Shown piece by piece: positions 13,225 through 53,580 of a DNA stretch of 64,000 bases. The stretch spans positions 2,368,001 through 2,432,000 of the forward strand of contig OZ253462.1 of assembly GCA_965261395.1 (NCBI GenBank), given 5' to 3'. Position numbers and translations under genes: made by a program. Every line of letters starts with the position of its first letter. The first letter of the stretch is position 1. This DNA is from Candidatus Latescibacterota bacterium. Its GTDB lineage: Bacteria > Latescibacterota > UBA2968 > UBA8231. The notes beneath the pieces were generated by a model, which was not told the origin of the DNA, did no database searches, and worked only from the letters and a program-made list of their open reading frames with translations.

Positions 13225-13794
13225 TTAAAAACGATTTTTGAGCTGTCCCCAGGATTGTCCTGCAACTGCTGTAGAAGCGGGTTCCGGATAGAAGCCAGAT
13301 CCCAAGAGGAAATCTTGGCCGAGAGCGCTATAGGGAATGGCGTAGCTCACTTTAGGCGAGCCAGTTTCTTCGTCCCTTTCTACCGCTGGATTGTCCCAAA
13401 GATACTCGACGTAGCCGCCTCCTTCGGCCGCCGCTGCGATGAGCCCCTGTGTGATTTTGACTCCGTTAGAGTCTTCGAGATCAATCAAGTTTTGGCCCTC
13501 GAGGGCTGGATTAGCCGCGTGAAAGACTACGATACCATCAATGGCAATAACAAAGAGGTAGATGGATCCCTGCTTCCAAGTACCTTCGGCTCTGAATTCC
13601 CCCAAGAGAGCTATGTACTGGGGAAGGGTCGTAGCTTTATTCGCGTAGTCCTTTGCCGCGAGTACAAAGGCCTTCAGGGTTTCCCGGTCCACCACATCAG
13701 CGGCTGTTACCTCGGGGTCTTGGGCGACGGCGGGATGCACGGCGGGCAAGAGGGTGGCCAGCGCCAGCATGAGTACTGCTGTTAGACGCTTCAT
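13225..13794 (-). CDS. Secreted stand-alone single Cache-domain protein with C-terminal SWGQLK tail, copy 1
   Basis: Signal peptide; sCache_2-like motifs YLFV, FHAANPALEGQNLIDLEDSNG, GGGYVEYLWDNP, KVSY, GSGFY. Confidence 0.8.
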   Translation of the reverse strand: MKRLTAVLMLALATLLPAVHPAVAQDPEVTAADVVDRETLKAFVLAAKDYANKATTLPQYIALLGEFRAEGTWKQGSIYLFVIAIDGIVVFHAANPALEGQNLIDLEDSNGVKITQGLIAAAAEGGGYVEYLWDNPAVERDEETGSPKVSYAIPYSALGQDFLLGSGFYPEPASTAVAGQSWGQLKNRF

Positions 13795-13880
13795 GATGAT
13801 CTCCTTTCTTATTTAAGTATGAATGACATGGGATAAGATACGCCCGACTCTGCAAAAAATCTATCAGCCAAGCCCACCTG
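13225..13880. repeat. Direct repeat copy A1 (Cache gene plus upstream region)
   Basis: Aligns with 15501-16150, including non-coding upstream GGATAA..AT..GCCC and CAAAAAATCTAT.AG.CAAGCCC.CCT. Confidence 0.85.
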
Positions 13881-13907
13881 CAAAAGCGCGTGTTCCCCCC
13901 AATGCGG

Positions 13908-15440
13908 CTACCCCTTGATAATTATCCCCGATTGTCTGCTTTTCGACGACGGCACCTTCCCAGACGCTACCTCCTCAATGCGGGCGATCACGCCCTCGAC
14001 ATCAAAGACATGGTTAACGCGGCCGTCCATCCGGCCGTCTGGACCCACCAAGAAATAGGAGGGTATGCCCCGGACCTGGTACAACTGAGCCACCGCCGCC
14101 TGCCAGCCGCCTGGGGAGCGGACGTGGACGCCGGTCAGGCCGTGCTCATCGACCGCTTGGTGCCACTCGTCGGCGGGGTCCAAAGAAATGTTCAAAAAGA
14201 CCACCTTCTGATCTCGGGTCCGCTGTTTGATTTTTTCCAGAAAGGGTAATGCCTCGATGCACGGGCCGCACCAACTCGCCCAAAAGTCTAGGAAAACCGC
14301 CTGACCTTTGAAATCGCTCAAGGAGATGCTTTGGCCCTCGAGATCGTCGAGGGTGAAGTCGGGGGCGGGCTGGCCGGGTTTGAACTTGGATGTTTCTCGT
14401 ACTACTTCTTCGACGACCTCGGTGTATTCGGGATAGGGGTTGTCCTGGAGGAATTCGGCTAGGCGTTGTTCACCTTGGTCAAAACGGCCCTGTTGGAAGT
14501 CGTCGATGATTTCACCAGCGAGAAAAAAGTACAGGACTTTGCCGTGCAAGAGCCGCTTGGCCAAGTGGTAGACAATGTTGTGGGGTTGGATTAAGTCTCC
14601 TCGGCGTTGCTCTTCGTCCAACCGTACAATGAAGTCTGGCAGGTAGGTGATGGTGTGAGGTTGGATAAAGGCTCGGCGTTGCTCCTCGGATAGTTGCTCC
14701 CGGAAGGCTCTCGTCTCGGCTTCCTCTTCTATACGCCAGAAATTGCGTTCCAGAAATCTGCGGTAATGGGTGGTGCCGATAGCCGCTTCGTCAACCAATT
14801 CGACTTGATCGAGGGCATCGTGATAGTCCGCGGGGAGGTCCTCGTTTCTGCTTCCATTGGCGAACATGTAGTCAGTGGGATAGGAGACTATGAAATTGGC
14901 CCATTCATAGGCGATTTCAGCGCGATAGTAATCGACGAAAGCCGGCGTGAGTTGGTACTGGCTGCAGCCTTCGTCCAAAAAGGACTCCAATTCCAAACGC
15001 CGTTGATCGATCATTTTGAGAAAGGTATCGACCTCTAGGTCTTTGTAGTCGATGCGCAGGTAATCGGAGAAGCGAGATCGCAGAGTAGCTAGGAACTGGT
15101 TGTTGGCTGCCCCCTGGCCGGAGAAGCGGAGGGACTGAGGGAGGTCGAGCAAGTCCGCGTCAAGGTGCAACTGATCGCCCGGTTCCAAGAAGAGCTTGAC
15201 CTCATCGTCGAGATCGACCGAAACCATTTGCGCTTCAGTAAACGGCAGTTCCACCGCGAGGCCGCCCTTTTCGTCAAGCGGAGCTTCGATGGTAACGGGC
15301 TTATGGTAAATGGGCGTTTGCTGGTACTCGAAGGTGATGCTGCGCCGTTCCAACGCATTGGCTAGCGTGGCGGTGACGCGGGTGGAAAGCGGTGACATGC
15401 TTTTCAGCGAAGCTTCTCGTTGTTCCTCTGATTGTCCCAT
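13908..15440 (-). CDS. TlpA/ResA-like thiol-disulfide reductase with N-terminal extension
   Basis: PAPDFTLDDLEGQSISLSDFKGQAVFLDFWASWCGPC thioredoxin fold at the C-terminus. Confidence 0.87.
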   Translation of the reverse strand: MGQSEEQREASLKSMSPLSTRVTATLANALERRSITFEYQQTPIYHKPVTIEAPLDEKGGLAVELPFTEAQMVSVDLDDEVKLFLEPGDQLHLDADLLDLPQSLRFSGQGAANNQFLATLRSRFSDYLRIDYKDLEVDTFLKMIDQRRLELESFLDEGCSQYQLTPAFVDYYRAEIAYEWANFIVSYPTDYMFANGSRNEDLPADYHDALDQVELVDEAAIGTTHYRRFLERNFWRIEEEAETRAFREQLSEEQRRAFIQPHTITYLPDFIVRLDEEQRRGDLIQPHNIVYHLAKRLLHGKVLYFFLAGEIIDDFQQGRFDQGEQRLAEFLQDNPYPEYTEVVEEVVRETSKFKPGQPAPDFTLDDLEGQSISLSDFKGQAVFLDFWASWCGPCIEALPFLEKIKQRTRDQKVVFLNISLDPADEWHQAVDEHGLTGVHVRSPGGWQAAVAQLYQVRGIPSYFLVGPDGRMDGRVNHVFDVEGVIARIEEVASGKVPSSKSRQSGIIIKG

Positions 15441-15500
15441 CCCACCTTTCTATTCGTCGGGCCTCATAAACAGTGCTGCGATTGCCTGTGTCCCTGCTGT

Positions 15501-16061
15501 CTAAAAGCGACTTTTGAGCTGTCCCCAGGACTGTCCTGCAACCGCCGTAGAAGCGGATCCCGGATAAAAGCCAGAGCCCAAGACGAAATTCTGGCCGAGG
15601 GCGGTATATGGGATGGCGTAGCTCACCTTAAGCGAGCCGGCGTCTTCGTCCCCTTCTACCGCTGGATCGTCCCAAAGATACTCGACGTAGCCTCCTCCCG
15701 CGGCCGCCGTAGCGAGGATCTCCTGTGTAATTTTGACTCCATTGGAGTCTTCGAGATCAATCAAGTTTTGGCCCTCGAGGTCTGGATTAGCCGCGTGAAA
15801 GACTACGATACCATCAGTGGTTCCGACAAAGAGGTAGATGGATCCCTGCTTCCAATCCCCGTCGGCCCTGAAGCTTTCCAAGGCACCTAAGTAATCGGGA
15901 AGGCTTTCAAAGCGATCCAAGTACTCTTTCGCCTCTAGTACAAAGGCTTTCAGGGATTCCCGATCCACCACGTCGCCGGCCGTTACTTTCACGTCGTCCT
16001 GAGCAACGGCGGGAAAGAGGCTGGCCAGCACTAGAATGAGTACTGCTGTCAGACGCTTCAC
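15501..16061 (-). CDS. Secreted stand-alone single Cache-domain protein with SWGQLK tail, copy 2
   Basis: GTG start with GGAGA RBS; near-identical C-terminal two thirds to copy 1. Confidence 0.8.
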   Translation of the reverse strand: MKRLTAVLILVLASLFPAVAQDDVKVTAGDVVDRESLKAFVLEAKEYLDRFESLPDYLGALESFRADGDWKQGSIYLFVGTTDGIVVFHAANPDLEGQNLIDLEDSNGVKITQEILATAAAGGGYVEYLWDDPAVEGDEDAGSLKVSYAIPYTALGQNFVLGSGFYPGSASTAVAGQSWGQLKSRF

Positions 16062-16150
16062 GATGGTCTCCTCTATCGTTGAGGATGTGAATCATATCGG
16101 ATAAAATATGCCCAATCCCCCAAAAAATCTATTAGACAAGCCCGCCTTGT
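15501..16150. repeat. Direct repeat copy A2 (Cache gene plus upstream region)
   Basis: Diverged copy of 13225-13880. Confidence 0.85.
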
Positions 16151-19827: not shown

Positions 19828-19842
19828 TTTTAATCGAATCCC

Positions 19843-34277: not shown

Positions 34278-34290
34278 TACGGCTTTAGCT

Positions 34291-34566
34291 ATGCCCCTCA
34301 AAAGCCACCCCGTCCACCTGCACACGTCCCGCCTGCACCTGCGTCCCATGACCGACGCCGATTGGGACACCTTGCTGCGCTGGAACCAAGATCCCGAAGT
34401 GTTGTATTACGCCGATTACAATCCCCGCAGCCGAACCGCGTTCGCCAAAGTAGGCTTCCGCGTCGTGGCTCACATCGCCTTGCCGCCCGGCGGCAAGGCG
34501 CGCTCCACCTGCGATATGTGTATCGCTCGAACCGAGTGGGCGGCGGGTGCCAATCCGCTGGCTTAG
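34291..34566 (+). pseudogene. RimJ/RimL-type GNAT acetyltransferase with internal in-frame deletion
   Basis: N-terminal TSRLHLRPMTDADW...DPEVLYY is fused directly to C-terminal DYNPRSRTAFAKVGF; only 91 aa; the central core is missing. Confidence 0.65.
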
Positions 34567-34579
34567 GTCTGTGGAGAAT

Positions 34580-34618
34580 GCCGACCTATGCGCTTAGTCG
34601 TCCCGTCGTACAGCCACC
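34580..34618. repeat. Direct repeat copy B1 (orphan copy of the Gfo/Idh/MocA gene start)
   Basis: 37/39 identical to 36576-36614. Confidence 0.85.
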
Positions 34619-34680
34619 GCAACGCCGCGCAAGCCGCGCTGTTATCAGTTGTGGACCCGCACGATAGCCCGTTGTCCATC

Positions 34681-34950
34681 TCAGAGTCTCTTGAGAAGCT
34701 GATCATATTTGGCGTGCGAGCCAATCCAGAACCAAATCATGGAGTCGTTGCGGCGAACACCCAGGGCGCGATAATCTCTGCTGATTCGAACGGCGAAAAT
34801 CGGTTTAGTCGGATGAACTTTCTTGAACCGGAGACTTGGGTGATAAGGATCGGCTTGGAATTGCCGGTAGGCTGATCTGGCTTGGTCTCGGACGCCGCGC
34901 GGCAAACCTTGAAGTGCCGCGCGAAATCGCTCCGTGGTCCGAGAGGTCAT
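34681..34950 (-). CDS. RelE/ParE-like toxin
   Basis: DPYHPSLRFKKV, VRISRDYRAL, WFWIGSHAKYD; overlaps the upstream small acidic gene. Confidence 0.8.
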   Translation of the reverse strand: MTSRTTERFRAALQGLPRGVRDQARSAYRQFQADPYHPSLRFKKVHPTKPIFAVRISRDYRALGVRRNDSMIWFWIGSHAKYDQLLKRL

Positions 34951-35165
34951 ATCTGCTCTGGGTCGAGAGGCTCAGTCTTGTTATCGCTGTATTCTTTGAG
35001 TGCCTCTTCAGCAAGTTGGTCCAACTCGGCCCTAGAGTTCTCAAAGGCGTTGTCCCACTGTCGCTCAGATTCTAGCTCTGCCATTATGACGGCGGCGATG
35101 GCGTCTTGCTCCTCGTCTGGGAGCTTCTTGATCTCTAAAATGGCCTTCTCAAGGAATTGGGTCAT
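34947..35165 (-). CDS. Putative antitoxin
   Basis: 72-aa acidic protein (LPDEEQDAIA...WDNAF...LAEEAL); ATGA overlap with the toxin. Confidence 0.75.
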   Translation of the reverse strand: MTQFLEKAILEIKKLPDEEQDAIAAVIMAELESERQWDNAFENSRAELDQLAEEALKEYSDNKTEPLDPEQI

Positions 35166-35252
35166 GATAAGTGTCTCCTCACTCAGATCGTCGGGTACCT
35201 TCTGGTCGTCCTTTCATTATAATTAAATAGTCAACCTGAGAAAGGACAGACC

Positions 35253-36593: not shown

Positions 36594-36614
36594 TCGTCCT
36601 GTCGTACAGCCACC
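36576..36614. repeat. Direct repeat copy B2 (functional gene start)
   Basis: Matches 34580-34618. Confidence 0.85.
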
Positions 36615-37654
36615 ACGGCCGCAGCATCGGCCAGACCGCCCGTGCCTTGGGGCACGATATAATCGGGGTTATGGATGGGGAAGAAGCCCCGCGCCAACAA
36701 CTCGCAGAAATTTTCCAATGCCCAGGCTTTGCTACCGCTGGCGAGTGCCTCGACGCCATGCAGCCCGCCGCCGCTATAGTCGCTGGCAAGCACATTGAAA
36801 TGCCGGATCACGTGCAGGCCTGCGTCGATCGGCGCAGCCCCTACCTGCTCGACAAACCCTTTGCCGATTGCGCTGCTCGGCTCCGACCCGCGGCCGCAGC
36901 GTCAGCCAAATACGGGGTCTTCAGCGCTCTCACCCTGCCCAATCGCGCTAGCCGCATCGTCGCTACTGTGGAGCGGTTGCTGGCGGATGGCACGCTGGGC
37001 GATTTGGTCCAGTATAGCTGCCGCCTCAACAACGGCCCACCTTCGCGCTACGACCCGACGCCCTCGGCTTGGCACAACGACCCGGCCATTTCCGGCGGCG
37101 GCAGTTGGGCCGTAGAGGCGGCCCACGGCATTGACACCTTCCTGCAATTCGTCGGCGAGCAGACGGTACACGTGGTCGGCGCGATCATGTCCAATGCCAC
37201 TCACGGCCGGACAGTGGAGGATATTGGCTTGGGAATGCTGCGCACGGACGGGGGCGTGACCGGCTTTATTGAAAGCGGCTACGCCTACCCGGCAGGAGTG
37301 CGCGGCGGCGACCACTTCTTCCGCTTTATCGGCACCCGTGCCATGGTCTTCCAGCAGTACGGCAAAGAGGGCGAGCCTCTCATCGAAGTCCACACTACCG
37401 AAGGCGTACAATTCAGTGAAGATCTGTCGCACGGCGAGCGCATGAAGAACATTGTCGATCAAGCCCTGACCGCTTTGGCAGATGGGCGGCCCTTCACTCC
37501 CAACATCGATCAAGCTATGCGCATTCTCGAAATACAGGACGCAGTGTACGACCACGCCCGCAGAAGCGCTCTGACCAACGGTCCGCATCCCATGGGCACC
37601 CCGCCTATGGCATCTAATGATGATGATGCGACGGCGAAAAACTACGGGCTATAG
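36584..37654 (+). CDS. Gfo/Idh/MocA family oxidoreductase
   Basis: ATG 36584 after AGGAGG; LLDKPFA, W..DPAISGGG...HGID, VED motifs. Confidence 0.82.
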   Translation: MRLVVLSYSHHGRSIGQTARALGHDIIGVMDGEEAPRQQLAEIFQCPGFATAGECLDAMQPAAAIVAGKHIEMPDHVQACVDRRSPYLLDKPFADCAARLRPAAAASAKYGVFSALTLPNRASRIVATVERLLADGTLGDLVQYSCRLNNGPPSRYDPTPSAWHNDPAISGGGSWAVEAAHGIDTFLQFVGEQTVHVVGAIMSNATHGRTVEDIGLGMLRTDGGVTGFIESGYAYPAGVRGGDHFFRFIGTRAMVFQQYGKEGEPLIEVHTTEGVQFSEDLSHGERMKNIVDQALTALADGRPFTPNIDQAMRILEIQDAVYDHARRSALTNGPHPMGTPPMASNDDDATAKNYGL

Positions 37655-38800
37655 CTGCTTGTATAGTTGAATGGTGCGGTGGGCCGCGTCTTCCCACGTG
37701 AAGGCTGCGGCCCGGTGGCGTCCTTGATGCGATAGCCGTTGGCGGAGCACGGAATCGGTCAGTAGGCGCTGCATCCCGGCGGCGATGGACGCGATGTCGA
37801 GCGGATCAACGAGCACGGTGCTTTCCCCAGCGACTTCGGCGAGCGAGGAACAGTTCGACGTGAGCACCGGACAGCCGCTGGCCATCGCTTCGAGCACGGG
37901 CAAGCCGAATCCTTCTATCAGTGACGGAAATGCAAAGAAGAGCGCATGGGCAAAACAGGCGCGGATTTGATCGTCGCTGAGCTGGCCGACGAGGAGCACC
38001 CGGTCGCTCAGGCCAAGTTGATGTGCTAGGCGCACAAGCGCAGGATTGCCCTCGCCGCGGCCGGCGAACACGAGGGCGAGATCGGGATGGTCCGGGGCGA
38101 CTTGGGCAAAAGCGCGCACCAGCCGAGGCAGGTTTTTGTACGGCAAGCTGTTGCCCAGGCCAAAGGCAAAAGGCCGTTCTGCAAGACCGTCGAGAATATC
38201 CTGCTGCGCACGGTCTTGGTCGGTCGCGTTGCCCAAGTCAAACGGGGCCGGTTCCGCGTTGTCCGAGTGCCAGGCGGGAGCTACGCCGTGGAGGATGGCT
38301 GTTACTTTGTCGGCTGGCACGCCGTGGTCGAGCGCAGCTTGGCGCGTGGTTTGGGAGACGGCGACGATGTGGTCGGCTGTGGTAATGGCCCGGCGGATAC
38401 CCATACTCCCGAGCGACCCCTTGACCCACCGCCGCCAGCGCCGGCCATCGGCGAGGTAGGAGTGATCCACCCATATCAGGTCGTGCAAGGTGATGACGAC
38501 GCGCCGGGCGCGCACGCCGATGGGGAGAAAGTGGTACAGGGAGTGATACACGTCGGCGTCGAGGGCGTTGATGACCCGGGCACCGGCGAGGATGTTGTGT
38601 GCCGAGGAAATATCGTGCGGTGAGAAAATCTCCCTGAAGTTGGCCTGATCGGCGATGGGGCCGTGACGCGAGGGTCGGCGGACGACGATGTACTCGTTTT
38701 CGCGGTCCAGCTTGGCGATGTGGCTGACGAGGTCGGCAGCGTAGCGGCCGAGGCTGGTGGGCACGTCGCGCAGTGAGCGGGCGTCGATACAGATTCTCAT
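37649..38800 (-). CDS. Glycosyltransferase family 4 (GT-B)
   Basis: ICIDAR, GRY, VITLHDL, PYKN, FPSLIEGFGLPVLEAMASGCPV. Confidence 0.9.
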   Translation of the reverse strand: MRICIDARSLRDVPTSLGRYAADLVSHIAKLDRENEYIVVRRPSRHGPIADQANFREIFSPHDISSAHNILAGARVINALDADVYHSLYHFLPIGVRARRVVITLHDLIWVDHSYLADGRRWRRWVKGSLGSMGIRRAITTADHIVAVSQTTRQAALDHGVPADKVTAILHGVAPAWHSDNAEPAPFDLGNATDQDRAQQDILDGLAERPFAFGLGNSLPYKNLPRLVRAFAQVAPDHPDLALVFAGRGEGNPALVRLAHQLGLSDRVLLVGQLSDDQIRACFAHALFFAFPSLIEGFGLPVLEAMASGCPVLTSNCSSLAEVAGESTVLVDPLDIASIAAGMQRLLTDSVLRQRLSHQGRHRAAAFTWEDAAHRTIQLYKQL

Positions 38801-42011: not shown

Positions 42012-42027
42012 ACAGAAAGGGCGCGTC

Positions 42028-44046
42028 ATGGTGGTTAAGATCCTCACATGGCTGCTGCTGGTATGCTGGGCCACGGCTAGCAGTGCCCAGCGGCAAAATT
42101 GGCAAATCGGCGGCGCGGGCTTGGCTTGGAGCGAGGGCGATTCTTCCACGGTGCTCGTCGATTTCGACTCAGTGCCCGGCGCTATTCAGCCCGTCTATAT
42201 CGACCCCGACCAAAGTCTGTTTTCGCTCTTTACCGACTGGGAGCCGCTCAAAGAGCCGCGCGAGTTGACCTATGTCGAAGGCGAGACGCCACGGGCTTGG
42301 AAGGGTGCGCAGGGCAACGAGACGACGGCCCACAATGGCACCTATATGGTCGATGGCGACAGTATGTCTTTCAATCCGCCGGTCTCTTCCAATCCCGAAT
42401 CGGTCTGGTACACCATTGATCTAGCCGTACCGGTGCCTGCGCACCGCTTTGGTTTTTTCACTCCGCCTCGGGGCTTTCGCGCCGACGGCATCCCCTTTGC
42501 CCAAGATGCCGTGCCGGCCTACGAGGTGTCTATCGCGGCGGAAGGCGATCCGAGTTGGCTCGAAGGGAGCCAACCCTACAAGCGCATTGGTCCATTGATT
42601 GCCGACGTGGCCGAAAATTTTATCGCCCGGGTGCAGATCGAATTTCCCAGACAATACGTGCGCTTCGTGCGCTACAAGCGGAAGACCTCGCTGTTGGATT
42701 CGGGGAGGGGAGGCAACACTAGCGTGAGTTCGGGGACCGCTTTCAAGGGGTCCATCGGCGACTTTGAACTCTTTGGCGAGGGGGTGCCGCGCAAGGCGGT
42801 TTACCGCTCGCGGATTTTCGCCTTGGAAAAGCCCGTCAACTTCGGTCGCCTGTCCTGGGCGGCAACGGCGCTGCGCCTAGTCGATGGAGAACGGGTGGAG
42901 GCACCCGATGCCGAGGTGGGGGTGGAGATTGAGGTGCGTACGGGGCGCGACGGGGATCCAAATATCTACCACGAATACACCGACCGCGGGGGTGAGGAAG
43001 TGGTGACGCGCGAGCGCTACGATTTGGTTTTGCAGCCGCGCTGGCGCGCGGGTCTCCTGCGCGACCCCCGGCCGGGAATGCGGGCCCCGATTACCTACGA
43101 TAGCGACAACTGGTCTTTCTGGTCGTTGCCCTTTTTTGAGTCGGGGCTGGTGCTTGACCTCAAGGGGGGGACCCATTTCCAGTTGCGGATTACACTCAAA
43201 AGCGAGGACTCCGCCGCATTCGTGCGGCTCGACTCGTTGTGGGTTGAGACCGCGCCGCTACTGGCTAGCCGGGTCGTGGGCGAGGTCGCGCTAGCCGGCG
43301 ACGTGCAGCCGGCCGGGGGCTTGACCCAAGTGCCGTTGGGGGAAGCGGCGGAACTGATCTACGACATCCGCGGCGAATTTGCCGGTGAGGGAGCAGGCTT
43401 TGACGCGCTGAGGATTCGCACTGGGACGCGGGCTGTGTTTACCCGGCTAGAGATGGGGAACCCTCCAAGGGCGATCGAGCCGGTTGAAGTCGTCGAGGGC
43501 GACGGGGAACTAGCGGTGGTGTTGCCGGAGCGGATCGGACCGGGAGACGCGGAGGGGGCACGGGTCGTCTTTGTCGCCGATGTGTTCTCGCTGGCCTGGA
43601 CGTTTGCGGGCGAGGTCTATAATGCAGGCGTCGATGCGCTACCCCAGCCCGTCGAACCGGGCGATGCCAGCGCCGAACTGGGGACCAATAGTCTGCGGGT
43701 TTTAGGGATGGCTGGGCAAAGCGATGGGCCGGTGGTAGGATTGGATCTTTCCACTAGGGTGCTGACGCCCAATGGCGACGGAGTCCACGACGAGGTCGAG
43801 ATCAGCTATGCGCTGGTGGGGTTGCCCGAGGATGTCCCCGTGGTGTTTAAGGTGTATTCGCTCGACGGGAGGCGGGTAGCCCAGCGGTCGTTGGGTGCGC
43901 AGCGCTTCGGTGCGCAGCGGGTGCGCTGGGATGGGCGCAATGGGGACGGGGTTTTATTGTCGCCCGGTCTCTATCTAGTTGAAGTAGCGCCTGAAGCCGA
44001 GCGGCAGGGGGTGCGTCGGTTGCGCCCATTAACACTAATCTACTGA
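42028..44046 (+). CDS. Large secreted protein with C-terminal FlgD/CHU_C-like domain (type A of pair 2)
   Basis: Signal peptide; WQIGG; VRTGRDGDP; WSFWS; LTPNGDGVHD...WDGRN...PGLY; ends LIY. Confidence 0.8.
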   Translation: MVVKILTWLLLVCWATASSAQRQNWQIGGAGLAWSEGDSSTVLVDFDSVPGAIQPVYIDPDQSLFSLFTDWEPLKEPRELTYVEGETPRAWKGAQGNETTAHNGTYMVDGDSMSFNPPVSSNPESVWYTIDLAVPVPAHRFGFFTPPRGFRADGIPFAQDAVPAYEVSIAAEGDPSWLEGSQPYKRIGPLIADVAENFIARVQIEFPRQYVRFVRYKRKTSLLDSGRGGNTSVSSGTAFKGSIGDFELFGEGVPRKAVYRSRIFALEKPVNFGRLSWAATALRLVDGERVEAPDAEVGVEIEVRTGRDGDPNIYHEYTDRGGEEVVTRERYDLVLQPRWRAGLLRDPRPGMRAPITYDSDNWSFWSLPFFESGLVLDLKGGTHFQLRITLKSEDSAAFVRLDSLWVETAPLLASRVVGEVALAGDVQPAGGLTQVPLGEAAELIYDIRGEFAGEGAGFDALRIRTGTRAVFTRLEMGNPPRAIEPVEVVEGDGELAVVLPERIGPGDAEGARVVFVADVFSLAWTFAGEVYNAGVDALPQPVEPGDASAELGTNSLRVLGMAGQSDGPVVGLDLSTRVLTPNGDGVHDEVEISYALVGLPEDVPVVFKVYSLDGRRVAQRSLGAQRFGAQRVRWDGRNGDGVLLSPGLYLVEVAPEAERQGVRRLRPLTLIY

Positions 44047-44050
44047 GAGC

Positions 44051-46414
44051 ATGGCGATGCGCTCGTTTTATGCGCTATGGGTGATGCTGCTATTGGGAAT
44101 AAGCGGCGCGGTATGGGCCGATGAGCTGCGCTTCGACCGTGCGGCAGCGTGGCGGACTTGGCAGATGCCCAACGACTTGATACAGATCGATGCCGACGGT
44201 AGGCTGCGGCTGACGAAGTTCCGCAAGGAAATCAACGCCGTGGCCAACGCCGGAGATTTTCGCCACGAGACGAAGGAGCGGGGCGAGGTGGTCGGCGGGA
44301 TCTGGGAGGCCAAGAGCAACCCGCAGACGGCAAATTTGATTGTCGATGGCGATCTGGAAACCTTCTGGCAACCCAACCCCGACGATGCGCTTGATCAGTG
44401 GTCGGTGCAGATCGATTTGGGCCGTCCGGTACTGGCGCGTCAGATTCGCTTGGTCTTTCCCGACCGCGAGGGGGCGCGGCCCTTGCGGCAATTCAGCGTC
44501 TTTCTCGCCTCGGGTGCCCGAATCCAGGCGCTCAACGATGTCTTCAAGTTTGAAGCGATCTATCGCACATCCAGACCCCATACCGCTACCGAACTGGTGA
44601 TTCCCTTGGAGTATCTAGGAACCGACAGCACCTATGTACTCGACGAGGGGCTGGCGCTCGATTTTGAGCGCGAGAAGCGCTTTCAAGTGATCCAGTATAT
44701 CATTATCGAAATCGACGAGCACAGCCCGGGCGTGGCGCTGGCGGAGGTCGAGGTTTTGGCGGTGGGGGACAATGTGAGCTTGGGCACGGCGGGTCGCGGT
44801 GGCAGTTTTCTCGAAGGCGGACGGACTACGGGCGCGGCCCTGATGTTCGACGGCGATATGGACAGCTTCGCGCTGTTGACCAGTGCCGAAGGCGGCTGGC
44901 ACGACGCGGGTGTGTGGTGGCGGGTAGATTTAGGGGCGGTGTTTTTTCTCGACGAGCTTTTCATTTACTTCAGCCAGCTAGGCGAAGGGCTACGCAGTCA
45001 GGTCCAAGGCGGCAACCCTTCGGCAGCGGGCGGGCTTTTCTTGGTCTCCGATGGCCGCCCGGCCGCGGGATCGGGATTGCCGGTACCCGAGCAGGTTGAC
45101 TACGAGGTACTGGTCGAAGATCGCTGTCGGCCCCAGTGTTTGGGGCGACTTTTTCACCAGCGCTACCTATTCGCCCCGCGCAAGATCCGCTACCTGCTCT
45201 GGCACGAGATAGACGGGGCGGCAACAGGCTTTGGTTGGGGCCTAGAGACCATGCTTTTTTCTCCAGGGTACCCGGCGCGCGTGGAGATGCGCTCGGGCTT
45301 TGTCGATTTAGCGACAGAAGCTGGCGACGGGCGGCCCCAGGTGATTGAGCGGCTGACGTGGGAAGCCCACCTGCCGCCGCAGACTAGAATCCAACTGCGC
45401 TCGCGGGCGGGCAACGCACTGCAGGAGGTGTACACTTTCTCCGACCGCAAAGGCGATATCGTCACCGAGGAGAAGTGGAACAGCTTGCCCAAGGTGTTAA
45501 AAGGCCCGATTGATACGACCTTGGTCGGCGGTGAAGATTGGGACGCTTGGAGCAATGTTTACCAGGCTTCGGGCGAGGCCTTCCAATCGGCGAGCCCGCG
45601 TCGCTTCGTGCAATTGGAGATGATTCTTGCAAGCGACGACCCGCACGTGGCTCCGGCAGTGGATGCGCTGACGATAGAGTTTACCGACGCGCTAGTGCAG
45701 TCGGCGCGGGGGCAAATCTGGCCACGGGAAGCTCGGCTCAACGAGGATACGCGCTTTACCTATACGCTGTGGCCGAGCACCGACGGGCAGGATAGCGGCT
45801 TTGATCGCTTGCGCTTTCGCATTCCCGGCGCGACCACGGGCAACGTGGCCCTGCGGATCGCCGGTGAGGACGTAGCGCCTCAGCAGGTGGCGCTGAGCGG
45901 CGATTCACTGTTGGTCTTGTTGCCGCACGTGGTGGTCGCCGATTCGGTGGAAGTGGATTTTACGGTGCGTCTTTGGGACAATGCAGCGCTGTTCGCACTC
46001 GACCTAGGCGCGAGTGAGCGCCCCGGGATCTGGCAGTCGGTAGTGCCGAGCGAACGACGGGCCAATATCGTGTTGTTACCCGGCCTGCCCGTCCAGGCTG
46101 CGCTCGTCGGCGACGTGAAGATCGCGCCCGCGGCGTTTACGCCCAACGGTGATGGGGTCAATGACTCGGTGGAGATCGACTTTATAGTTTTCAAGGCGCA
46201 GGGCATCCAGCCACAGGTACGGATTTTTGATGTTGCCGGTCGGTTGGTCGCCCAGCCGGGTGGCACCAAGGTTGCCGGACGCTGGCACTTTCGCTGGTCG
46301 GGGCACGCTGCGGACGGCGCGTTGGCGTTGCCGGGGATGTACCTCTGCCGGATTGATCTAGGGACGGCGAGCGGTAGCGCAGCGGTCTTGCGGCCGCTCG
46401 CCTTGGCCTATTAG
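44051..46414 (+). CDS. Large secreted protein with discoidin-like modules and C-terminal FlgD/CHU_C-like domain (type B of pair 2)
   Basis: Signal peptide; WRTWQMP; DGDLETFWQP; IDLGR; FTPNGDGVND...PGMY; ends LAY. Confidence 0.8.
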   Translation: MAMRSFYALWVMLLLGISGAVWADELRFDRAAAWRTWQMPNDLIQIDADGRLRLTKFRKEINAVANAGDFRHETKERGEVVGGIWEAKSNPQTANLIVDGDLETFWQPNPDDALDQWSVQIDLGRPVLARQIRLVFPDREGARPLRQFSVFLASGARIQALNDVFKFEAIYRTSRPHTATELVIPLEYLGTDSTYVLDEGLALDFEREKRFQVIQYIIIEIDEHSPGVALAEVEVLAVGDNVSLGTAGRGGSFLEGGRTTGAALMFDGDMDSFALLTSAEGGWHDAGVWWRVDLGAVFFLDELFIYFSQLGEGLRSQVQGGNPSAAGGLFLVSDGRPAAGSGLPVPEQVDYEVLVEDRCRPQCLGRLFHQRYLFAPRKIRYLLWHEIDGAATGFGWGLETMLFSPGYPARVEMRSGFVDLATEAGDGRPQVIERLTWEAHLPPQTRIQLRSRAGNALQEVYTFSDRKGDIVTEEKWNSLPKVLKGPIDTTLVGGEDWDAWSNVYQASGEAFQSASPRRFVQLEMILASDDPHVAPAVDALTIEFTDALVQSARGQIWPREARLNEDTRFTYTLWPSTDGQDSGFDRLRFRIPGATTGNVALRIAGEDVAPQQVALSGDSLLVLLPHVVVADSVEVDFTVRLWDNAALFALDLGASERPGIWQSVVPSERRANIVLLPGLPVQAALVGDVKIAPAAFTPNGDGVNDSVEIDFIVFKAQGIQPQVRIFDVAGRLVAQPGGTKVAGRWHFRWSGHAADGALALPGMYLCRIDLGTASGSAAVLRPLALAY

Positions 46415-46446
46415 TTCCCAAACTCCAACGAGTAAAGGTAGGTATC

Positions 46447-47472
46447 ATGGCAGTTAAGACGTGTTTGATGATCGGTGCCAGCGGCATGGCTGGCGGTTGG
46501 ATCGAGCGGCTGACTCAGCGCCTCGGCGACAGAGTCCAGATCGTCGGGTTGGTGGATGTCAACGAGGAAGTGCTCGCCGCCCAAGGAGCCAAGCTCGGCT
46601 TGGGGGCCGAGCAGCTTTTTACCGATTACGAAGAGGCTTGCGCCAAGGTGCAGGCTGATTTCTGCGGCATTGCCACCCCGCCGCAGTTCCACAGCCCGCA
46701 GGCCATCGCCGCGCTGGAAGCGGGGATGCCGGTTATCTGCGAGAAGCCGATTGCCGATACCTTAGCAGCGGCCAAGGCCATGGCCGCCAAGGCCGAGGAG
46801 ACGGGGTTGCCCTGCGCGATTATCCAGAATTACCGCTACGCGCCCAACAAGCAGGAGGTGGTGCGGATTCGCGACGAAGGGAGACTGGGGCGGCTGCAGC
46901 ACATCTTTGGCCGCTACGCCTGCGACTATCGCGAATACATGTCGTGGGGCAAGGCGTGGCGACACGACATGGATTTCAGCTTGCTCTTTGAAGGCTCGGT
47001 GCATCACTTCGATATGATGCTCTTCTTGTCGGGGGGGAATTGCGAGGTGTTTCAAGGATTTGGGTGGAACCCGGCGTGGTCGAGCTTTAAACACTATTCG
47101 AGCGGATTTTATCTGATGAGGATGGACAATGGAGTGCACACAGCGTACGAGGGGAACAGTTCGGCGGCGGGGATTAAGAGTTGTTGGCACAGCGAGTACT
47201 ATCGCTTGGAGTTCGAGGAAGGGACGGTGGAGATAGGCGCGGGAGACGAGGTGCGAATTTATCGGGTGGGGCAGGAGGTGGAGGTGTATCCGGCGCCAGC
47301 CATGGAGTGGGCCGGGCACGAGTATTTGCTCAAGGAGTTTGTGGATTGGCTGGAGGGGGGCAAGGCGTCGGCGACGAGGATTGAAGATAATTTGCAGAGT
47401 TTCGCGCTAGTGATTGCGGCGATGGAGACGACAGAGGATGGGGAGCCCAAGCGAATTGCGGATTATTTGTAA
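46447..47472 (+). CDS. Gfo/Idh/MocA family oxidoreductase
   Basis: IGASGMA, ATPPQFH, ICEKPIA, NYRY, SVHHFD. Confidence 0.9.
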   Translation: MAVKTCLMIGASGMAGGWIERLTQRLGDRVQIVGLVDVNEEVLAAQGAKLGLGAEQLFTDYEEACAKVQADFCGIATPPQFHSPQAIAALEAGMPVICEKPIADTLAAAKAMAAKAEETGLPCAIIQNYRYAPNKQEVVRIRDEGRLGRLQHIFGRYACDYREYMSWGKAWRHDMDFSLLFEGSVHHFDMMLFLSGGNCEVFQGFGWNPAWSSFKHYSSGFYLMRMDNGVHTAYEGNSSAAGIKSCWHSEYYRLEFEEGTVEIGAGDEVRIYRVGQEVEVYPAPAMEWAGHEYLLKEFVDWLEGGKASATRIEDNLQSFALVIAAMETTEDGEPKRIADYL

Positions 47473-47587
47473 AGTCTCGGCTTTAGAAACTAAGACGCAG
47501 ACGCACGGCTCTGGTCGTGCCATTGAAACTGAACAGGAATCGCGGAATCGCCTGTCCTAGCCGTCGTTGTTGCCGCGCAGCAGGAAC
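47350..47587. repeat. Direct repeat copy C1 (Gfo 3' end + spacer + orphan tail of the membrane gene)
   Basis: Aligns with 49423-49688; the minus strand encodes orphan FLLRGNNDG*. Confidence 0.9.
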
Positions 47588-47693
47588 TTGCCGGGGTATG
47601 GAAAAAAGTACATCATATTCTGTTGAATCATCTCTATGTCGCTTTTGCGAGACGATCTGCACACGATTGTCTTGACAACCAAGGAGAGTCGCC

Positions 47694-49436
47694 ATGATTC
47701 GCTTCATCCTTTTTGTCCTCGTCCTCACCCTAGTCGCCTGCTCCGACCCTGCACCGGTAGCACCCCACCCTGCGGGCAAAGCCAACTGTGCCTTGTGCGG
47801 GTTCTTGGGCGACGACACCCACACCATTGCCGATGGGCAAGGTGCCCACGAAAGCCCCGAGCCCGACAGCCTGTCCGTTGTGTTCGCGGACTCCACTCTA
47901 GAGGGCGCAGTGAGGCAAGCATTGGATCGACTCCAAGGACGCCTCACACCGGAAGACGTCGCGTCCCTAACCCGTATATCGGCCAGTGGTAAGACCATTC
48001 ACAGTTTAGCCGGACTGGAGCACTTTACAGCCCTGAAAAAGCTAGATCTAAAGGACAACCAGATCGCCGATATAACACCGTTGGCGACCTTGGCCGAGGT
48101 GGATTCGTTGGCTCTGCAGGACAACCAGATTGTCGATGTGACGCCGCTAACCGGCTTGACCGGCCTGTCTTGGCTGGAACTAGGGAACAACCTGATTGAA
48201 GACGTGGCACCCTTGGTTGCCAACACCGGTCTGGGTGAAGGCGATCATGTCAACTTGGAGAACAACCCCCTCAGCGCCCAAGCTCTCAGTGAACAGATCC
48301 CCGCCTTGCAAGCACGAGGCGTCGAGGTTGAGTACACCATTGCCGACGAGCAAGACACTGATACAAGCTCCGACGGCGCTTCCATATTCGACGCTTTTAA
48401 CGCCATAAGCTCCGAATTGCCATCAATTGGTAGTATAGAGACTCGTCTTCTCACACATAGTGGGCGTGGGCCAAGATGGTCATCAGATGGTCAACGTATT
48501 GTTTTTTACTCCAGTCGTAACGGCCGGTGGGATATATATAGTATCGACTCTGATGGAACAAACGAAATCCGCCTAACGACACACGAAACTGGTGAATGGT
48601 CTCCGACGTGGTCGCCTGACGGTCTCAGAATTGCCTTCGTGTCTTACCGCGACGGTTACGCCGGTCACCAGAGTATTCATATCATGGACTCTGATGGAAA
48701 AAACGAAACTCGACTAACAGAAAATAACCGTCATGACGAATATCCAAGGTGGTCACCTGATGGTCGGCGTATAGCATACGTATCTGTTCTTCGTGAAAAT
48801 AATCGTCAAAACAGAGAGATATATGTCATGGACGCCGATGGTTCCAACAAGACCCGGCTCACGCAACATGTTGAGGATGACTGGTTGCCGGCGTGGTCGC
48901 CCGATGGTCAAAGTATTGCATTCTTGTCTCTACGCAATCTTGACATTGAGGTATATATCATGGATGCCGATGGGCGCAACAAGAAAAGACTCACGCAAAG
49001 GAATCCCAGCCATTACCCAGCGTGGTCCCCTGCACCTGATAGCAGACGCATTGCTTACAATTCACTTCCTTCATTTGATGATTATGGTAAGGGGCGTATT
49101 GCCTGGGGAGCGAACCATGAGATATATGTCATGGATGCCGATGGCCGCAACAAGAAAAGACTCACATGGGTTGAAGGCTCAGATTTCTGGCCAGCGTGGT
49201 CGCCTGATGGGGAACGTATTGCCTTTGTGTCTGAGCGTGATGGCGATATGGAGATATATGTCATGGACGCTGATGGGCGCAACGAGAAAAGACTCACATA
49301 CGGCGCTGGGAACGATGGTAATGTACCAAACGCCCTTGCGTGGTCGCCTGATCCTGATAGTCATAGAATCGTCTTTGAGCGAGGTCGGGACGAAGAAATA
49401 TATATCGTGGAGTTCATGGAAATTGAAGGGCGGTAA
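47694..49436 (+). CDS. Lipoprotein with internalin-like leucine-rich repeats and TolB-like (PD40) beta-propeller
   Basis: Lipobox LVAC; LxxLxLxxNxIxDxxPL repeats; WSPDG..IAF.S...EIYVMDADG.N..RLT repeats; AAGGAG RBS. Confidence 0.88.
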   Translation: MIRFILFVLVLTLVACSDPAPVAPHPAGKANCALCGFLGDDTHTIADGQGAHESPEPDSLSVVFADSTLEGAVRQALDRLQGRLTPEDVASLTRISASGKTIHSLAGLEHFTALKKLDLKDNQIADITPLATLAEVDSLALQDNQIVDVTPLTGLTGLSWLELGNNLIEDVAPLVANTGLGEGDHVNLENNPLSAQALSEQIPALQARGVEVEYTIADEQDTDTSSDGASIFDAFNAISSELPSIGSIETRLLTHSGRGPRWSSDGQRIVFYSSRNGRWDIYSIDSDGTNEIRLTTHETGEWSPTWSPDGLRIAFVSYRDGYAGHQSIHIMDSDGKNETRLTENNRHDEYPRWSPDGRRIAYVSVLRENNRQNREIYVMDADGSNKTRLTQHVEDDWLPAWSPDGQSIAFLSLRNLDIEVYIMDADGRNKKRLTQRNPSHYPAWSPAPDSRRIAYNSLPSFDDYGKGRIAWGANHEIYVMDADGRNKKRLTWVEGSDFWPAWSPDGERIAFVSERDGDMEIYVMDADGRNEKRLTYGAGNDGNVPNALAWSPDPDSHRIVFERGRDEEIYIVEFMEIEGR

Positions 49437-49688
49437 GGCATCGGCGACGAGGATTGAAGATAATTTGCAGAGTTTTGCGCTGGTGATTGCGGCGCTGGAG
49501 ACGACGGTGGATGGGAAGCCCAAGCGAATTGCGGATTATCTGTAAGAAGCAATTCGCTTGGGCGCACTACTTTAGAAACTGAGGCGCAGACGCACGGCTC
49601 TGGTCGCGCCGTTAAAACCGAACTGATTCACTTCCCAAGGATACTGAAGCGCCTGTCCTAGCCGTCGTTGCCTCCCCGCAGCAGGAAC
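49423..49688. repeat. Direct repeat copy C2 (orphan Gfo 3' end + spacer + functional membrane gene tail)
   Basis: Encodes orphan GKASATRIEDNLQSFALVIAALETTVDGKPKRIADYL* (stop 49545, offset 2073 from 47472). Confidence 0.9.
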
Positions 49689-50098
49689 ACGCCCATCGCG
49701 CCCGCAAGCAGCGGCAGCGTGGCGTCGATGAGGATCCACACGAGGCTGGCCGTATCCCCTCCTGCGGCGGTGAATGCAGGACTGAGCAGGATAAACCAGT
49801 TCCAGAAGAACAGGATGCCCACGAACAGGAAGCCGTAGAATTGCGCGTTGGCGGCAACAAACTCGCGCGTCACCGCGCCGCTGTCCCCCTCGCTGTCAGC
49901 GGCTTTCTTGCGGAGGTAGCCGAATATCACGCCCAAGGCGATGGCCAGCGCCATCAACGGGTCCAAGATGTCCCAAAGCGGGCTATACGGCTGCCCTTTG
50001 CTCGAGGTGTGATAGAGCGGTTCGACTACGGTGTGGACTGCGACCGCAACCGCCATCAGGACGAGAAATATGCCACTAATTCGCTTGAGCGTATCCAT
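49658..50098 (-). CDS. Hypothetical 4-TM membrane protein
   Basis: 146-aa ORF, strong AGGAGG RBS, four hydrophobic segments. Confidence 0.75.
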   Translation of the reverse strand: MDTLKRISGIFLVLMAVAVAVHTVVEPLYHTSSKGQPYSPLWDILDPLMALAIALGVIFGYLRKKAADSEGDSGAVTREFVAANAQFYGFLFVGILFFWNWFILLSPAFTAAGGDTASLVWILIDATLPLLAGAMGVFLLRGGNDG

Positions 50099-50101
50099 GA
50101 T

Positions 50102-50120
50102 TCCCTCCTATGTGATGTGG
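50102..50120. repeat. Direct repeat copy D1
   Basis: TCCCTCCTATGTGA(TGTGG); 14 bp exact and 17/19 match with 53562-53580. Confidence 0.6.
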
Positions 50121-51029: not shown

Positions 51030-51033
51030 GGCG

Positions 51034-52002: not shown

Positions 52003-53431
52003 TCAGTCCTCCAGCACCCAGAGGTCCTTGCCGCCGCCTTGGCTGGAATTGACCACGAGGCTGCCCCGACGTAGCGCCACGCGGCAAAAGGCCCCGGGCA
52101 CGATGCGGGTCTCGCGGCCGTGGAGGACAAAAGGACGCAGATCAACGTGGCGCGGCGCGGCCCTCAATGAAGCAGGGCGCGCTTGAGAGCGCGAGCACCG
52201 GCTGAGAAATAAAATCGGCTGGGTTGGCGCGAAGCTCCTCGGCGTAGGCTGCGCGCTCTGCGGGCGTTGCGTGCGGACCGATGAGCATACCGTAGCCGCC
52301 GGATTCGCCCACGCGCTTCACTACTAGGTTTTCGAGGTTGTCGAGGGTGTAATCTAGATCCTCCGGCCGTCGGCACAGGTGGGTCTGCACGTTGGCGAGG
52401 ATTGGCTCTTCGCCTAGATAGTAGCGGATCATGTCGGGGACGTAGGCATAGACACTCTTGTCATCGGCCACGCCCGTCCCCGGTGCGTTTGCCAAAGCTA
52501 CGTGCCCGAGCTTAAAGGCGTGCAGCAGCCCAGGCACCCCGAGTAGGGAGTCGGGGCGGAAGACGAGGGGGTCGAGGAAGTCGTCGTCCACCCGGCGGTA
52601 GATCACATCGACGCGCCGTAGTCCCGTGGTGGTGCGCATGTACACGAAGCCGTCCTTGACTAGCAGGTCGCGGCCTTCCACGAGTGATGCGCCAATCTCA
52701 TGCGCTAGGAACATATGTTCGTAAAAGGCTGAGTTATAGACTCCGGGCGTGAGCAGGACGATGCAGGGGTCGGTGCATCCATTGGGGGCGAGGTCGCGCA
52801 AGGTCTGGAGTAGCACCTGCCCGTAGTGCTCTACCTCTCGCACTCGGCAGCTCCGGTAGAGGCGACGCAAGCTGGTCTTCACCACCTTGCGGTTGGCGAT
52901 CATATAGGACACGCCCGAGGGCACTCGTAGGTTGTCCTCAAGCACCACGAAGCCGTCGTCTTGGGTGCGCACTAGGTCGGTGCCGCAGATGGCGACCCAC
53001 GTGCCGTGGGGGACGGAGACGCCGCGCATCTCGATGAGGTACTGGGGACAGCCGCGCACTACGTCGGCCGGGATCACGCCATCGGCGATGATGCGGGCTT
53101 CGCCGTACACGTCCTCTAGGAAGCGGTTCAGGGCAGCGATGCGCTGGGTGAGGCCGCTTTCGAGATGTTGCCACTCGGCAGCCGAGAGGAGCCGGGGCAC
53201 GCAGTCGATGGGAATGATGCGCTCGTCGGCCTCGTCGTCGTCATAGACGGTGAAGGTGATGCCTTCGGTAGAGAAGGAGTGCGTTACTCGCTCTTGGATT
53301 GCGCCGATTTCCTCGTCTGAGAGCCGGCACAAGGTGTCGTATAATTCGCGGCAGTGTGGGCGGGGCGTGCCGTCGGGCAGGAACATCTCATCGTAGGTTG
53401 CAGCATTGAGATCGTAGGCGTCGAAGTGCAT
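52003..53431 (-). pseudogene. Circularly permuted type 2 ATP-grasp protein, frameshifted near the C-terminus
   Basis: VLEDNLRVPSGVSY, LLTPGVYNSAFYEH, YRRVDDDFLDP; the tail [10 protein letters not shown]...[17 protein letters not shown] is out of frame from about 52160. Confidence 0.85.
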
Positions 53432-53561
53432 GGGACGACTTTCCGATCGAGGGCCTTGCGGCTTGGGACGGGTTGCGAGGGCACGGCCGGAGGAGGGTAA
53501 TCCCGGCCGACCTCACATTTAGGTGAAATATATACTATTTACCTGTAGAAAAACAGATAAA

Positions 53562-53580
53562 TCCCTCCTATGTGACGAGG
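53562..53580. repeat. Direct repeat copy D2
   Basis: TCCCTCCTATGTGA(CGAGG), matches 50102-50120. Confidence 0.6.

Follow-up and report, generated by a model that had tools for sequence, protein, structure and literature searches.

Insertions between duplicated gene boundaries in a Latescibacterota genome and their likeness to insertion with long target duplication

Insertion with long target duplication was reportedly first described by Nobusato et al. (2000, Gene 259:99), and the records since 2000 are for the most part isolated cases linked to restriction-modification genes. Homology-facilitated illegitimate recombination in natural transformation, said to have been described by de Vries and Wackernagel (2002) and by Prudhomme et al. 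(2002), reportedly leads to insertion of foreign DNA with deletion of recipient DNA. Integrase-mediated islands at tRNA genes or gene 3' ends, together with their integrase-less, cis-mobilizable derivatives, share a fixed attachment core and depend on an integrase. Here we compare these systems with inserts that lie between direct repeats of gene boundaries in a 64,000-nucleotide stretch of Candidatus Latescibacterota bacterium (assembly GCA_965261395.1, contig OZ253462.1, positions 2,368,001 to 2,432,000). We call this whole stretch the window and number it from its first letter. An original prediction, made from the letters of the window, described four blocks of cargo genes (A to D), each flanked by direct repeats of ordinary host sequence, and put forward a new insertion process to account for them.

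Criteria for insertion with long target duplication are given by Furuta, Abe and Kobayashi (2010, NAR 38:2428; PMC2853133). In the extract of that article on which we draw, a case is an indel relative to a related genome, with an insert of less than 20 kb, a duplication of more than 30 bp that aligns to a single copy in the empty genome, and no mobility gene. Restriction-modification cargo was a screening criterion in that study, and the extract leaves the mechanism open while suggesting double-strand breakage. It reports nine intraspecific cases and further repeat-flanked cases across the prokaryote genomes screened. According to an extract of a second article (PMC3457768), the pattern is also known for "other DNAs". 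The pattern described below is this published one, here dense and with many types of cargo. As far as the extract of PMC2853133 goes, the process that had been proposed as new was already in print under that name.

The window is part of a single 6.55-Mb contig from a genome that is 95% complete and has a G+C content of 59.3% (coded G000 in comparisons). Our congener set comprised 30 genomes of the same genus (coded G001 and so on). Alignments of the window used the syntenic 60 kb from 12 single-contig members of this set (G001, G004, G006, G009, G010, G011, G012, G018, G021, G022, G043 and G044). Gene content was assessed by a Pfam scan of 55 called open reading frames (ORFs), and tRNA genes were sought with ARAGORN. 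Four public runs (X1, X15, X16 and X19) supplied assembled contigs from mixtures of related strains.

Two insertions at gene junctions

Block B lies on the forward strand at the start of a GFO/IDH/MocA gene (36584-37654). Its repeats are 44 nt long, agree at 40 of 44 positions and are spaced 1996 nt apart. Copy 1 (34575-34618) is an orphan that holds the ribosome-binding site and the first 31 nt of the GFO gene, fused in frame to a weak 95-codon ORF. Copy 2 (36571-36614) supplies the working start of the gene. The cargo between them (34619-36570) consists of two small ORFs without a family and a SAF/DRL-type oxidoreductase gene (35253-36593), whose stop codon is the TAG that closes the upstream gene in genomes with an empty site. 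We found no paralog of the cargo elsewhere in the genome. The small ORFs (34588-34875 and 34882-35226) have weak coding scores and no match in Pfam or NCBIfam, so the label of toxin-antitoxin pair that they had been given was not supported. A genuine AbrB/MazE-PIN pair is present at 33529-34277, upstream of block B and outside its repeats.

Three of the 12 congeners (G004, G012 and G018) have an empty site at this position, with one GFO start directly after an upstream GNAT-like gene. As read from the sequence, the stop codon of the GNAT-like gene lies 8 nt inside the GFO reading frame, so that the two genes overlap. The single copy in these genomes aligns to both copies of block B, with a subject overlap of 50 bp. 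G022 has both copies and the same cargo. Its orphan copy is the same as in the window, with a C>T change in common, and both of its copies carry one G022-specific change. Five congeners (G009, G010, G011, G021 and G044) have the oxidoreductase gene without the orphan copy or the small ORFs, and three (G001, G006 and G043) have other content at the site.

Other variation was seen around this block. All 12 relatives have an extra 300 bp at 34411-34416; the window carries a 300-bp deletion there, with a 5-6 nt overlap, that truncates the GNAT-like gene (34291-34566). Contigs from the public runs contain a variant allele that lacks 33534-34285 and has 25 other letters instead (X15 and X16). A further variant, present in all four runs, lacks 34571-34961 and has AGT in its place, which removes the orphan GFO start of block B.

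Block C lies at a convergent junction between a second GFO gene (46447-47472) and a gene for a 146-amino-acid protein on the minus strand (49658-50098). Copy J1 (47351-47592, forward strand) contains the working last 122 nt of the GFO gene, the spacer and an orphan last ~37 nt of the 146-amino-acid gene. Copy J2 (49424-49693, forward strand) contains an orphan GFO 3' end, an intact terminator hairpin and the working 3' end of the 146-amino-acid gene. The second arm of the hairpin is lost from J1, and of the two copies only J2 keeps the hairpin of the empty site. The repeats match in blocks that are 85-91% identical (78% with gaps) and are spaced 2073-2101 nt apart. The cargo (47593-49423, forward strand) carries a gene for a protein with leucine-rich repeats (LRR) and a PD40 beta-propeller (47694-49436), and its stop codon is inside J2.

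Clean empty sites were found for block C in six of the 12 congeners (G001, G009, G011, G012, G021 and G022), where the GFO gene adjoins the convergent 146-amino-acid gene. The single junction in these genomes aligns to both J1 and J2, with overlaps of 116-247 bp. Two congeners (G010 and G044) have a homologous PD40 gene at the site, and four (G004, G006, G018 and G043) show other content or deletions. An orphan GFO end lies to the right of the cargo in G044 and, in shortened form, in G010, with derived bases in common with the window copy. A wider search added G002, which has the left orphan only. J1 and J2 share a 16-nt insertion that we saw in no other genome. The block also shows a mosaic-like pattern relative to G022, J1 being G022-like on the left and J2 on the right.

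The 5' LRR part of the block C cargo (47680-48389, including 14 nt upstream of the start) is 87% identical to one gene in a cluster of LRR-headed genes at genome positions 4880700-4894800, 2.5 Mb away. The PD40 part of the cargo is not similar to that cluster, and the LRR part is a shuffled N-terminal module. We considered a joint from 49693 to 47679 in run X1 (depth 7.8) as a circle or tandem form of the block and rejected it, since the 86 nt from J1 to the beginning of the cargo are missing from it; a variant strain is the better reading. Among the run joints listed (15 of 56), none leads from 47472/47592 to 49424/49693.

We compared both blocks with the published description. Their flanks are 88-95% identical to those of the empty-site congeners, and in each block both repeats align to one sequence of the empty genome. 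The duplications exceed 30 bp (44 bp in B and ~240-270 bp in C), and the inserts are well under 20 kb (1.95 and 1.83 kb) and carry no mobility gene. Neither cargo is a restriction-modification system. Both blocks are genuine insertions into what was ancestrally a contiguous junction.

The signs of a site-specific island, an integrase and its attachment site, were not found. The Pfam scan detected no integrase or transposase family among the 55 ORFs of the window, ARAGORN returned 0 tRNA genes there, and the repeat pairs of different blocks are unrelated in sequence to each other. The genome outside the window carries multi-copy insertion sequence (IS) elements with copies that are 99.7-100% identical, and transposition is active in those parts. 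The claim that recombinases and tRNA sites are missing thus holds for the window but not for the genome. Several other statements of the original prediction agreed with our results. Blocks B and C each have one functional and one orphan copy, the four spacings were as given, and the repeats of separate blocks share no sequence. The empty alleles that it proposed to look for in relatives exist for blocks B and C. Most gene labels were also right: Pfam supported the Cache genes, a 510-amino-acid AhpC/TlpA-like protein, the SAF/DRL oxidoreductase, the GFO/IDH/MocA genes, the LRR and PD40 protein and a circularly permuted ATP-grasp operon.

Repeat pairs across the genome and among congeners

We compared the genome with itself in 40-kb pieces and kept repeat pairs of 30-800 bp with at least 85% identity and a spacing of 300-12000 bp. 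Direct pairs far exceeded inverted pairs (244 versus 19). The excess persisted among pairs that include a gene boundary or are at least partly intergenic (148 direct versus 13 inverted), and those among them whose repeats occur exactly twice in the genome numbered 105 direct pairs at 83 loci versus 2 inverted pairs. Gene boundaries came from our own crude gene caller (5206 genes, 89.5% coding), and the counts include nested pairs. The median repeat was ~80 bp long and the median bracketed stretch 2.9 kb. Bracketed DNA had a median G+C content of 56.3%, compared with 60.3% for random segments of equal size, a comparison in which the pairs are not independent, so that its P value overstates. A 400-kb sample from a genome of another family in the same class held 5 pairs, whereas this genome held a mean of 14.4 per 400 kb (range 5-32). 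The genome-wide look for direct repeats that the original prediction had suggested thus showed them far in excess of inverted ones, at a density about three times that of this single comparator.

We fetched 12 loci with repeat copies that are 94-100% alike, scanned their genes and compared six of them with five congeners. Each of these six is matched by a single-copy site in one or more of the five. The cargos at these recent events include a caspase-like protease with an Mrr nuclease, an N6/N4 methylase, RmuC, a C5 methylase with a GHKL ATPase and a PIN protein, GmrSD, a TIR/TPR/TaqI_C protein with an SMC-like ATPase, PD40 and WD40 proteins, an operon for an ABC peptide transporter and a 934-amino-acid protein of secreted type, whose gene has a homolog at 78-85% elsewhere in G012. 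Some cargos contain IS copies. Their G+C content is 47-59%, except for the ABC operon (65%). We found no source for the cargos within the genome. Six of 12 cargos had no other match, the only close matches (99.7-100%) were nested IS copies, and the remaining matches were distant paralogs at 66-90% identity. On these grounds, template switching from within the genome was rejected as the origin of the cargos.

Two recent events illustrate the pattern. In the first, which is the clearest, an insert parts the large-subunit gene of an aconitase-family enzyme from its small-subunit gene, and the end of the large-subunit gene is perfectly duplicated (50/50). The two genes abut in four of the five congeners, and G012 represents the state just before the last insertion. 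In the second, the junction between two genes that lie 14 nt apart is duplicated over 129 bp (genome positions 2189570 and 2191883), with 128 of 129 positions identical. One copy provides the stop codon of the upstream gene, the other provides the ribosome-binding site and start of the downstream gene, and all five congeners have a single junction. In all four recent events examined, the two copies are mutually nearest, with 4-10 differences between them versus 4-28 to congeners. At one of these (L071), G022's own occupied copy ties at 4 differences.

Two of the loci showed further rearrangement. At L075, which has a 286-bp repeat, the two flanks lie at different places in relatives. At L068 (genome positions 2188550-2194538), the Mrr nuclease gene is 89% identical to one in G012 (L098). 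The G012 gene occupies a slot on the other side of the neighboring TIM-barrel gene and has no flanking repeats. In this genome the corresponding slot holds a family-A DNA polymerase gene that is absent from G022, G009 and G012.

Additional inserts were found in the region covered by the window. A fifth block (E), absent from the list in the original prediction, lies on the forward strand at the start of the GFO gene that also borders block C. Copy 1 (42026-42040) holds the start codon and first four codons of that gene and now starts the first cargo gene, which has taken over the old promoter and start codon. Copy 2 (46445-46459) is the working GFO start and agrees with copy 1 at 13 of 15 nt. 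The 4.4-kb cargo (42041-46444) encodes two secreted-type proteins of 672 and 787 amino acids, with matches to FlgD_ig, F5/8 type C and CHU_C domains, and 42041-46433 is absent in G021 and G022. In four runs, contig depth summed across this cargo comes to about half the value of the flanks, a figure that does not equal a share of cells.

Congeners carry inserts of the same form at hot spots of the window region. G043 has a 4.4-kb insert (L042:12832-17205) at a 124-bp duplication of the convergent junction between a GFO gene and a glycosyltransferase gene, equivalent to window positions 37628-37751. It encodes an N6_N4 methylase and an RE_Eco47II-type nuclease, which form a complete Type II restriction-modification pair, together with P63C and an IS1595 transposase, and the overlapping convergent gene ends are duplicated. 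Duplications of 17 and 59 bp at a GFO start flank an ATPase_2/DUF234 gene in G009 and G043, a 214-bp duplication in G012 flanks an AbiC-like gene and a DDE transposase, and duplications of 53 and 58 bp at 53564-53621 occur in G009 and G044, with a WD40 gene as the insert in G009. A second copy of the GFO/glycosyltransferase junction is also present in G001 and G041.

We catalogued the gaps between the window and the 12 congeners. The 125 pairwise records included 84 pure indels, which fell into 48 clusters. Thirteen of the 48 clusters overlap by at least 15 bp; this count includes block C twice and four clusters in the Cache array described below. Outside that array, about one in five pure indels has a target duplication and most have none.

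An artefact, whether strain-chimeric misassembly or a random frequency of repeats, is barely credible as a general explanation of these results. The public runs do hold co-occurring strains with differing alleles of the region. Against misassembly, the same two-copy structures appear in independent assemblies from other species (G022 for block B; G044 and G010, with their orphan GFO ends, for block C), and a run contig with 100% identity (35745-37598) bridges copy 2 of block B. The balance of 105 direct to 2 inverted pairs argues against chance repeats. One block of the window, D, is at chance level. Its first "copy" (50097-50120, minus strand) is the ribosome-binding site of the 146-amino-acid gene, and its second (53557-53580, minus strand) lies in the spacer that is upstream of the ATP-grasp operon and agrees with the first at 20 of 24 positions; the spacing is 3460 nt. 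The exact core is 14 nt, below the published 30-bp cut-off. In 40 Markov-1 simulations of the window, exact direct repeats of at least 14 nt that lie 300-4000 nt apart numbered 1.05 on average (maximum 4). Because about one such repeat is expected, D is no more than a chance-level resemblance between ribosome-binding sites and stands outside the phenomenon. None of the 12 relatives has an indel edged by the D repeats. In nine of the 12 the ATP-grasp operon is contiguous with its neighbors; G043 has a decayed version, and G004 and G006 lack it along with much else. The second D copy lies beside an insertion hot spot (53542-53624) that is in use in G009, G010, G022 and G044. We also considered D as a scar of this hot spot and rejected it, since no relative has the 146-amino-acid gene adjoining the mandelate-racemase-like gene with a single copy.

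Block A is likewise distinct from B, C and E. Cache gene 1 (13223-13880, minus strand, including 86 nt upstream; 189 amino acids) and Cache gene 2 (15499-16147, minus strand; 186 amino acids) flank a gene for a TlpA/ResA-like thiol-disulfide oxidoreductase (13908-15440, minus strand). Identity of the repeats is 88% in the first 300 nt and, with gaps, 80% overall; their spacing is 2267-2276 nt. Each Cache copy is an open gene that encodes a signal peptide. Six relatives have a gene whose match to the window starts at 15647 and which encodes a double-Cache protein of ~335 amino acids. Cache gene 2 (15501-16061) is a chimera, with a 5' part orthologous to the double-Cache gene of relatives (compare the G010 locus, L014/L015) and a 3' part like Cache gene 1. 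In relatives, TlpA-like paralogs number from 1 to 4 or more, and additional Cache fragments lie between the Cache genes. Intact copies, variable copy number and a hybrid gene are what a tandem paralog array shows. We therefore rejected the reading of A as cargo between a live and an orphan copy. Unequal homologous recombination has reshaped block A, a paralog array that is separate from the pattern in B, C and E. The window also holds three paralogs of a DUF6785/DUF6784 protein of ~640-650 amino acids (793-2754, 11174-13090 and 60516-62432); the first two lie 10.3 kb apart, have a DNA identity of 71-78% and each follow FG-GAP/ASPIC genes. In sum, the repeats described in the original prediction are real for A, B and C, true insertions are limited to B and C among its four blocks, and A and D were over-read.

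The array in block A fits a second explanation, in which a tandem duplication comes first and is followed by replacement with a diverged allele or by internal deletion; this alternative is drawn in the extract of PMC3457768 (fig. 6A(ii)). The variable number of TlpA and Cache genes and the chimeric Cache gene are as this route predicts, and tandem paralog arrays are common in this genome. For the insertions themselves we consider it very unlikely. The cargos of B, C and the recent events are unrelated to their flanks, low in G+C and without a paralog in the genome. Both copies hold the complete contiguous junction of the empty site, and working gene ends that are split between the copies are not obtainable by tandem duplication and deletion.

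Routes of insertion

Blocks B, C and E and the ~80 further loci are probably recombinase-free insertions of mostly foreign DNA with in-place duplication of the target. The duplications cover 15 to ~750 bp of target, and each insert lies between two direct copies of a gene boundary. Each flanking gene always keeps one intact end, and the cargos, which are low in G+C, bear no relation to each other across sites. The recurrent, recombinase-free pattern that keeps the flanking host genes whole, as claimed in the original prediction, is thus upheld.

We propose that the duplication may arise in place in a single step. As a conjecture, the DNA could be joined at two offset strand breaks, with filling of the gap, or could bridge two sister duplexes at a replication fork before fill-in. 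Selection would retain just those events in which the duplication covers the end or start of a gene, because genes that are tightly packed, overlapping or 14 nt apart stay whole only if their boundary is duplicated. Recombination between the copies could later cause gene conversion and scarless loss of cargo. We suggest that such loss may account for the patchy distribution among species: G022, the nearest relative of the window in two of three local trees, is without block C, and more distant genomes have it. In-place duplication is favored because the copies of recent events are mutually nearest, with two events perfect or nearly so, and because events with a split junction are not makeable by one homology-anchored event. 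The mutually nearest copies would argue against a donor allele from another sampled species and would be compatible with a conspecific donor.

A Campbell-type event offers an unlikely but live alternative. In this route, a circle carrying the cargo and one junction copy from a related strain would integrate by a single homologous crossover to give junction-cargo-junction, which is exactly the structure observed. The mosaic of block C relative to G022, with the terminator hairpin of the empty site in J2 only, is consistent with such a crossover. Copies recombine with each other, so circles could form, and exchange of DNA among lineages is suggested by conflicting local trees. The ABC-operon cargo of G022 is also 98% identical to that of G000, and the flanks are 94-96% identical. 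However, the route accounts for spread and not for origin, since the circle itself needs a junction-cargo-junction donor. In the four recent events no sampled species is nearer to either copy than the copies are to each other, and two events have copies with identities of 50/50 and 128/129. The joint that goes back from 49693 to 47679 also lacks 86 nt expected in a circle of this allele.

Homology-facilitated illegitimate recombination could likewise place foreign DNA beside a gene boundary. Linear DNA would be anchored by homology in a flanking gene, and its other end would be joined illegitimately inside the anchored region, leaving a native and a donor gene end. This would need only host recombination and DNA uptake genes. 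We found one match to ComEC and two to DprA, and no match to the Ku family in this 95%-complete single-contig genome. With Ku absent and ComEC and DprA present, recombination-based routes fit slightly better than classical end joining, but ComEC and DprA also occur in 10-11 of 14 control genomes and carry little weight. The route predicts a mixture of clean insertions, insertion-deletions and insertion-duplications, as catalogued here, and one-sided states such as those of block C in G002 (left orphan only) and in G010 and G044 (right orphan only). At L069 the working copy has unique changes and the orphan looks ancestral, as import from an occupied donor would give. Split-junction events (block C and the 129-bp event) count against it, as they would need two events, or else a donor already carrying the orphan. 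Over the ~400 nt available next to the L069 repeat, we saw no tract of raised divergence. We therefore regard this route as quite improbable. Neither it nor Campbell circles, which the original prediction had offered as possible drivers, is demonstrated, and the four recent events have copies that are mutually nearest.

A site-specific recombinase or transposase encoded elsewhere and acting in trans is highly improbable. Active IS elements in the genome and the IS copies in some cargos give this idea its footing. Against it, repeat sequence and repeat length (15 to ~750 bp) differ at every site, the window has no tRNA or integrase, and by eye we found no shared motif or inverted ends at 17 cargo-boundary pairs.

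Several observations weigh against in-place duplication or limit its reach. The steps proposed above are inferred from assembled contigs, with no step observed. The older events B and C have copies that are 9-20% apart, as between species, and the left/right mosaic of block C relative to G022 is also expected from a Campbell-type crossover. At L069 it is the orphan and not the working copy that lies closer to outgroups, the opposite of simple orphan drift. Comparison of repeat copies with outgroups gave mixed polarity (1?12111, 22?2? and 1221, and 10 mixed sites in the RmuC event), a test that is confounded by recombination. Maximum-likelihood trees of three neighboring conserved segments (28200-58350, 12 congeners) are star-like and conflict, placing the window nearest to G004/G018/G006, to G022 or to G018. 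The conflict suggests that recombination between lineages is common and that polarity tests are blurred. Three quarters of the pure indels in the region have no duplication, so insertion with duplication is one route among several. Finally, the census rests on a crude gene caller, counts nested pairs and has one 400-kb comparator.

Comparison with known systems

It is possible, though doubtful, that duplicative insertion of this kind is host-driven, takes any cargo and is a main builder of the accessory genome in this genus, with the repeats making the inserts excisable cassettes. If so, host homologous recombination could excise inserts, lose them without a scar, convert them and possibly pass them on as circles, in effect a cassette system with no enzyme dedicated to it. 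The genus offers a richer data set than the scattered cases on record. One closed genome has ~80 candidate loci with many kinds of cargo, the ages of events span perfect 50-bp copies to copies diverged by 20%, and ~30 related genomes, many of them single contigs, show the same sites in empty, occupied and half-decayed form. With such data one could choose between duplication in place and recombination with a donor allele, and learn what share of an accessory genome of symbiont type (defence genes, repeat proteins) comes in without the machinery of mobile elements. For annotation, the short orphaned ends of genes and the chimeric starts that lie next to accessory genes should be read as scars and not as genes.

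Compared with transposon target-site duplication, the proposed insertions have in common an insert flanked by target that is duplicated in place. Transposases give short duplications of fixed length and defined ends, whereas the duplications here range from 15 to ~750 bp and no element ends are seen. The inserts resemble integrase islands in having direct repeats around the cargo, with one copy completing the target gene and the other an orphan. Unlike such islands, every site here has its own repeat, and lengths vary 50-fold. Homology-facilitated illegitimate recombination, as reported, is similar in that foreign DNA is added beside a homologous anchor by no dedicated enzyme, with a second copy of the anchor end possible. 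It differs in that it is said to give deletion rather than duplication, and it would not yield the split-junction type in one step.

Insertion with long target duplication is the closest system, as far as the extract of PMC2853133 describes it. Both have inserts of less than 20 kb without a mobility gene between long, variable and mutually unrelated direct repeats, and in both a single copy in a related genome aligns to the two repeats. In both, the repeats often lie over the 3' end of a gene and gene fusions occur at the joint. The methylase and Eco47II-type nuclease pair in G043 is the classic cargo of that system, and some recent events approach it with Mrr, methylases and GmrSD. There are also differences. 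Most cargo here is not restriction-modification, comprising an oxidoreductase, LRR, PD40 and WD40 proteins, an ABC operon and secreted proteins as well as Mrr, GmrSD, RmuC and methylases. Some duplications fall below the 30-bp cut-off, as at block E (15 nt). Finally, ~80 loci in one genome compare with the nine intraspecific cases and further ones given in that extract. We conclude that the insertions described here belong to the published pattern, insertion with long target duplication, at a density and with a range of cargo that set this genome apart from the cases reported there.

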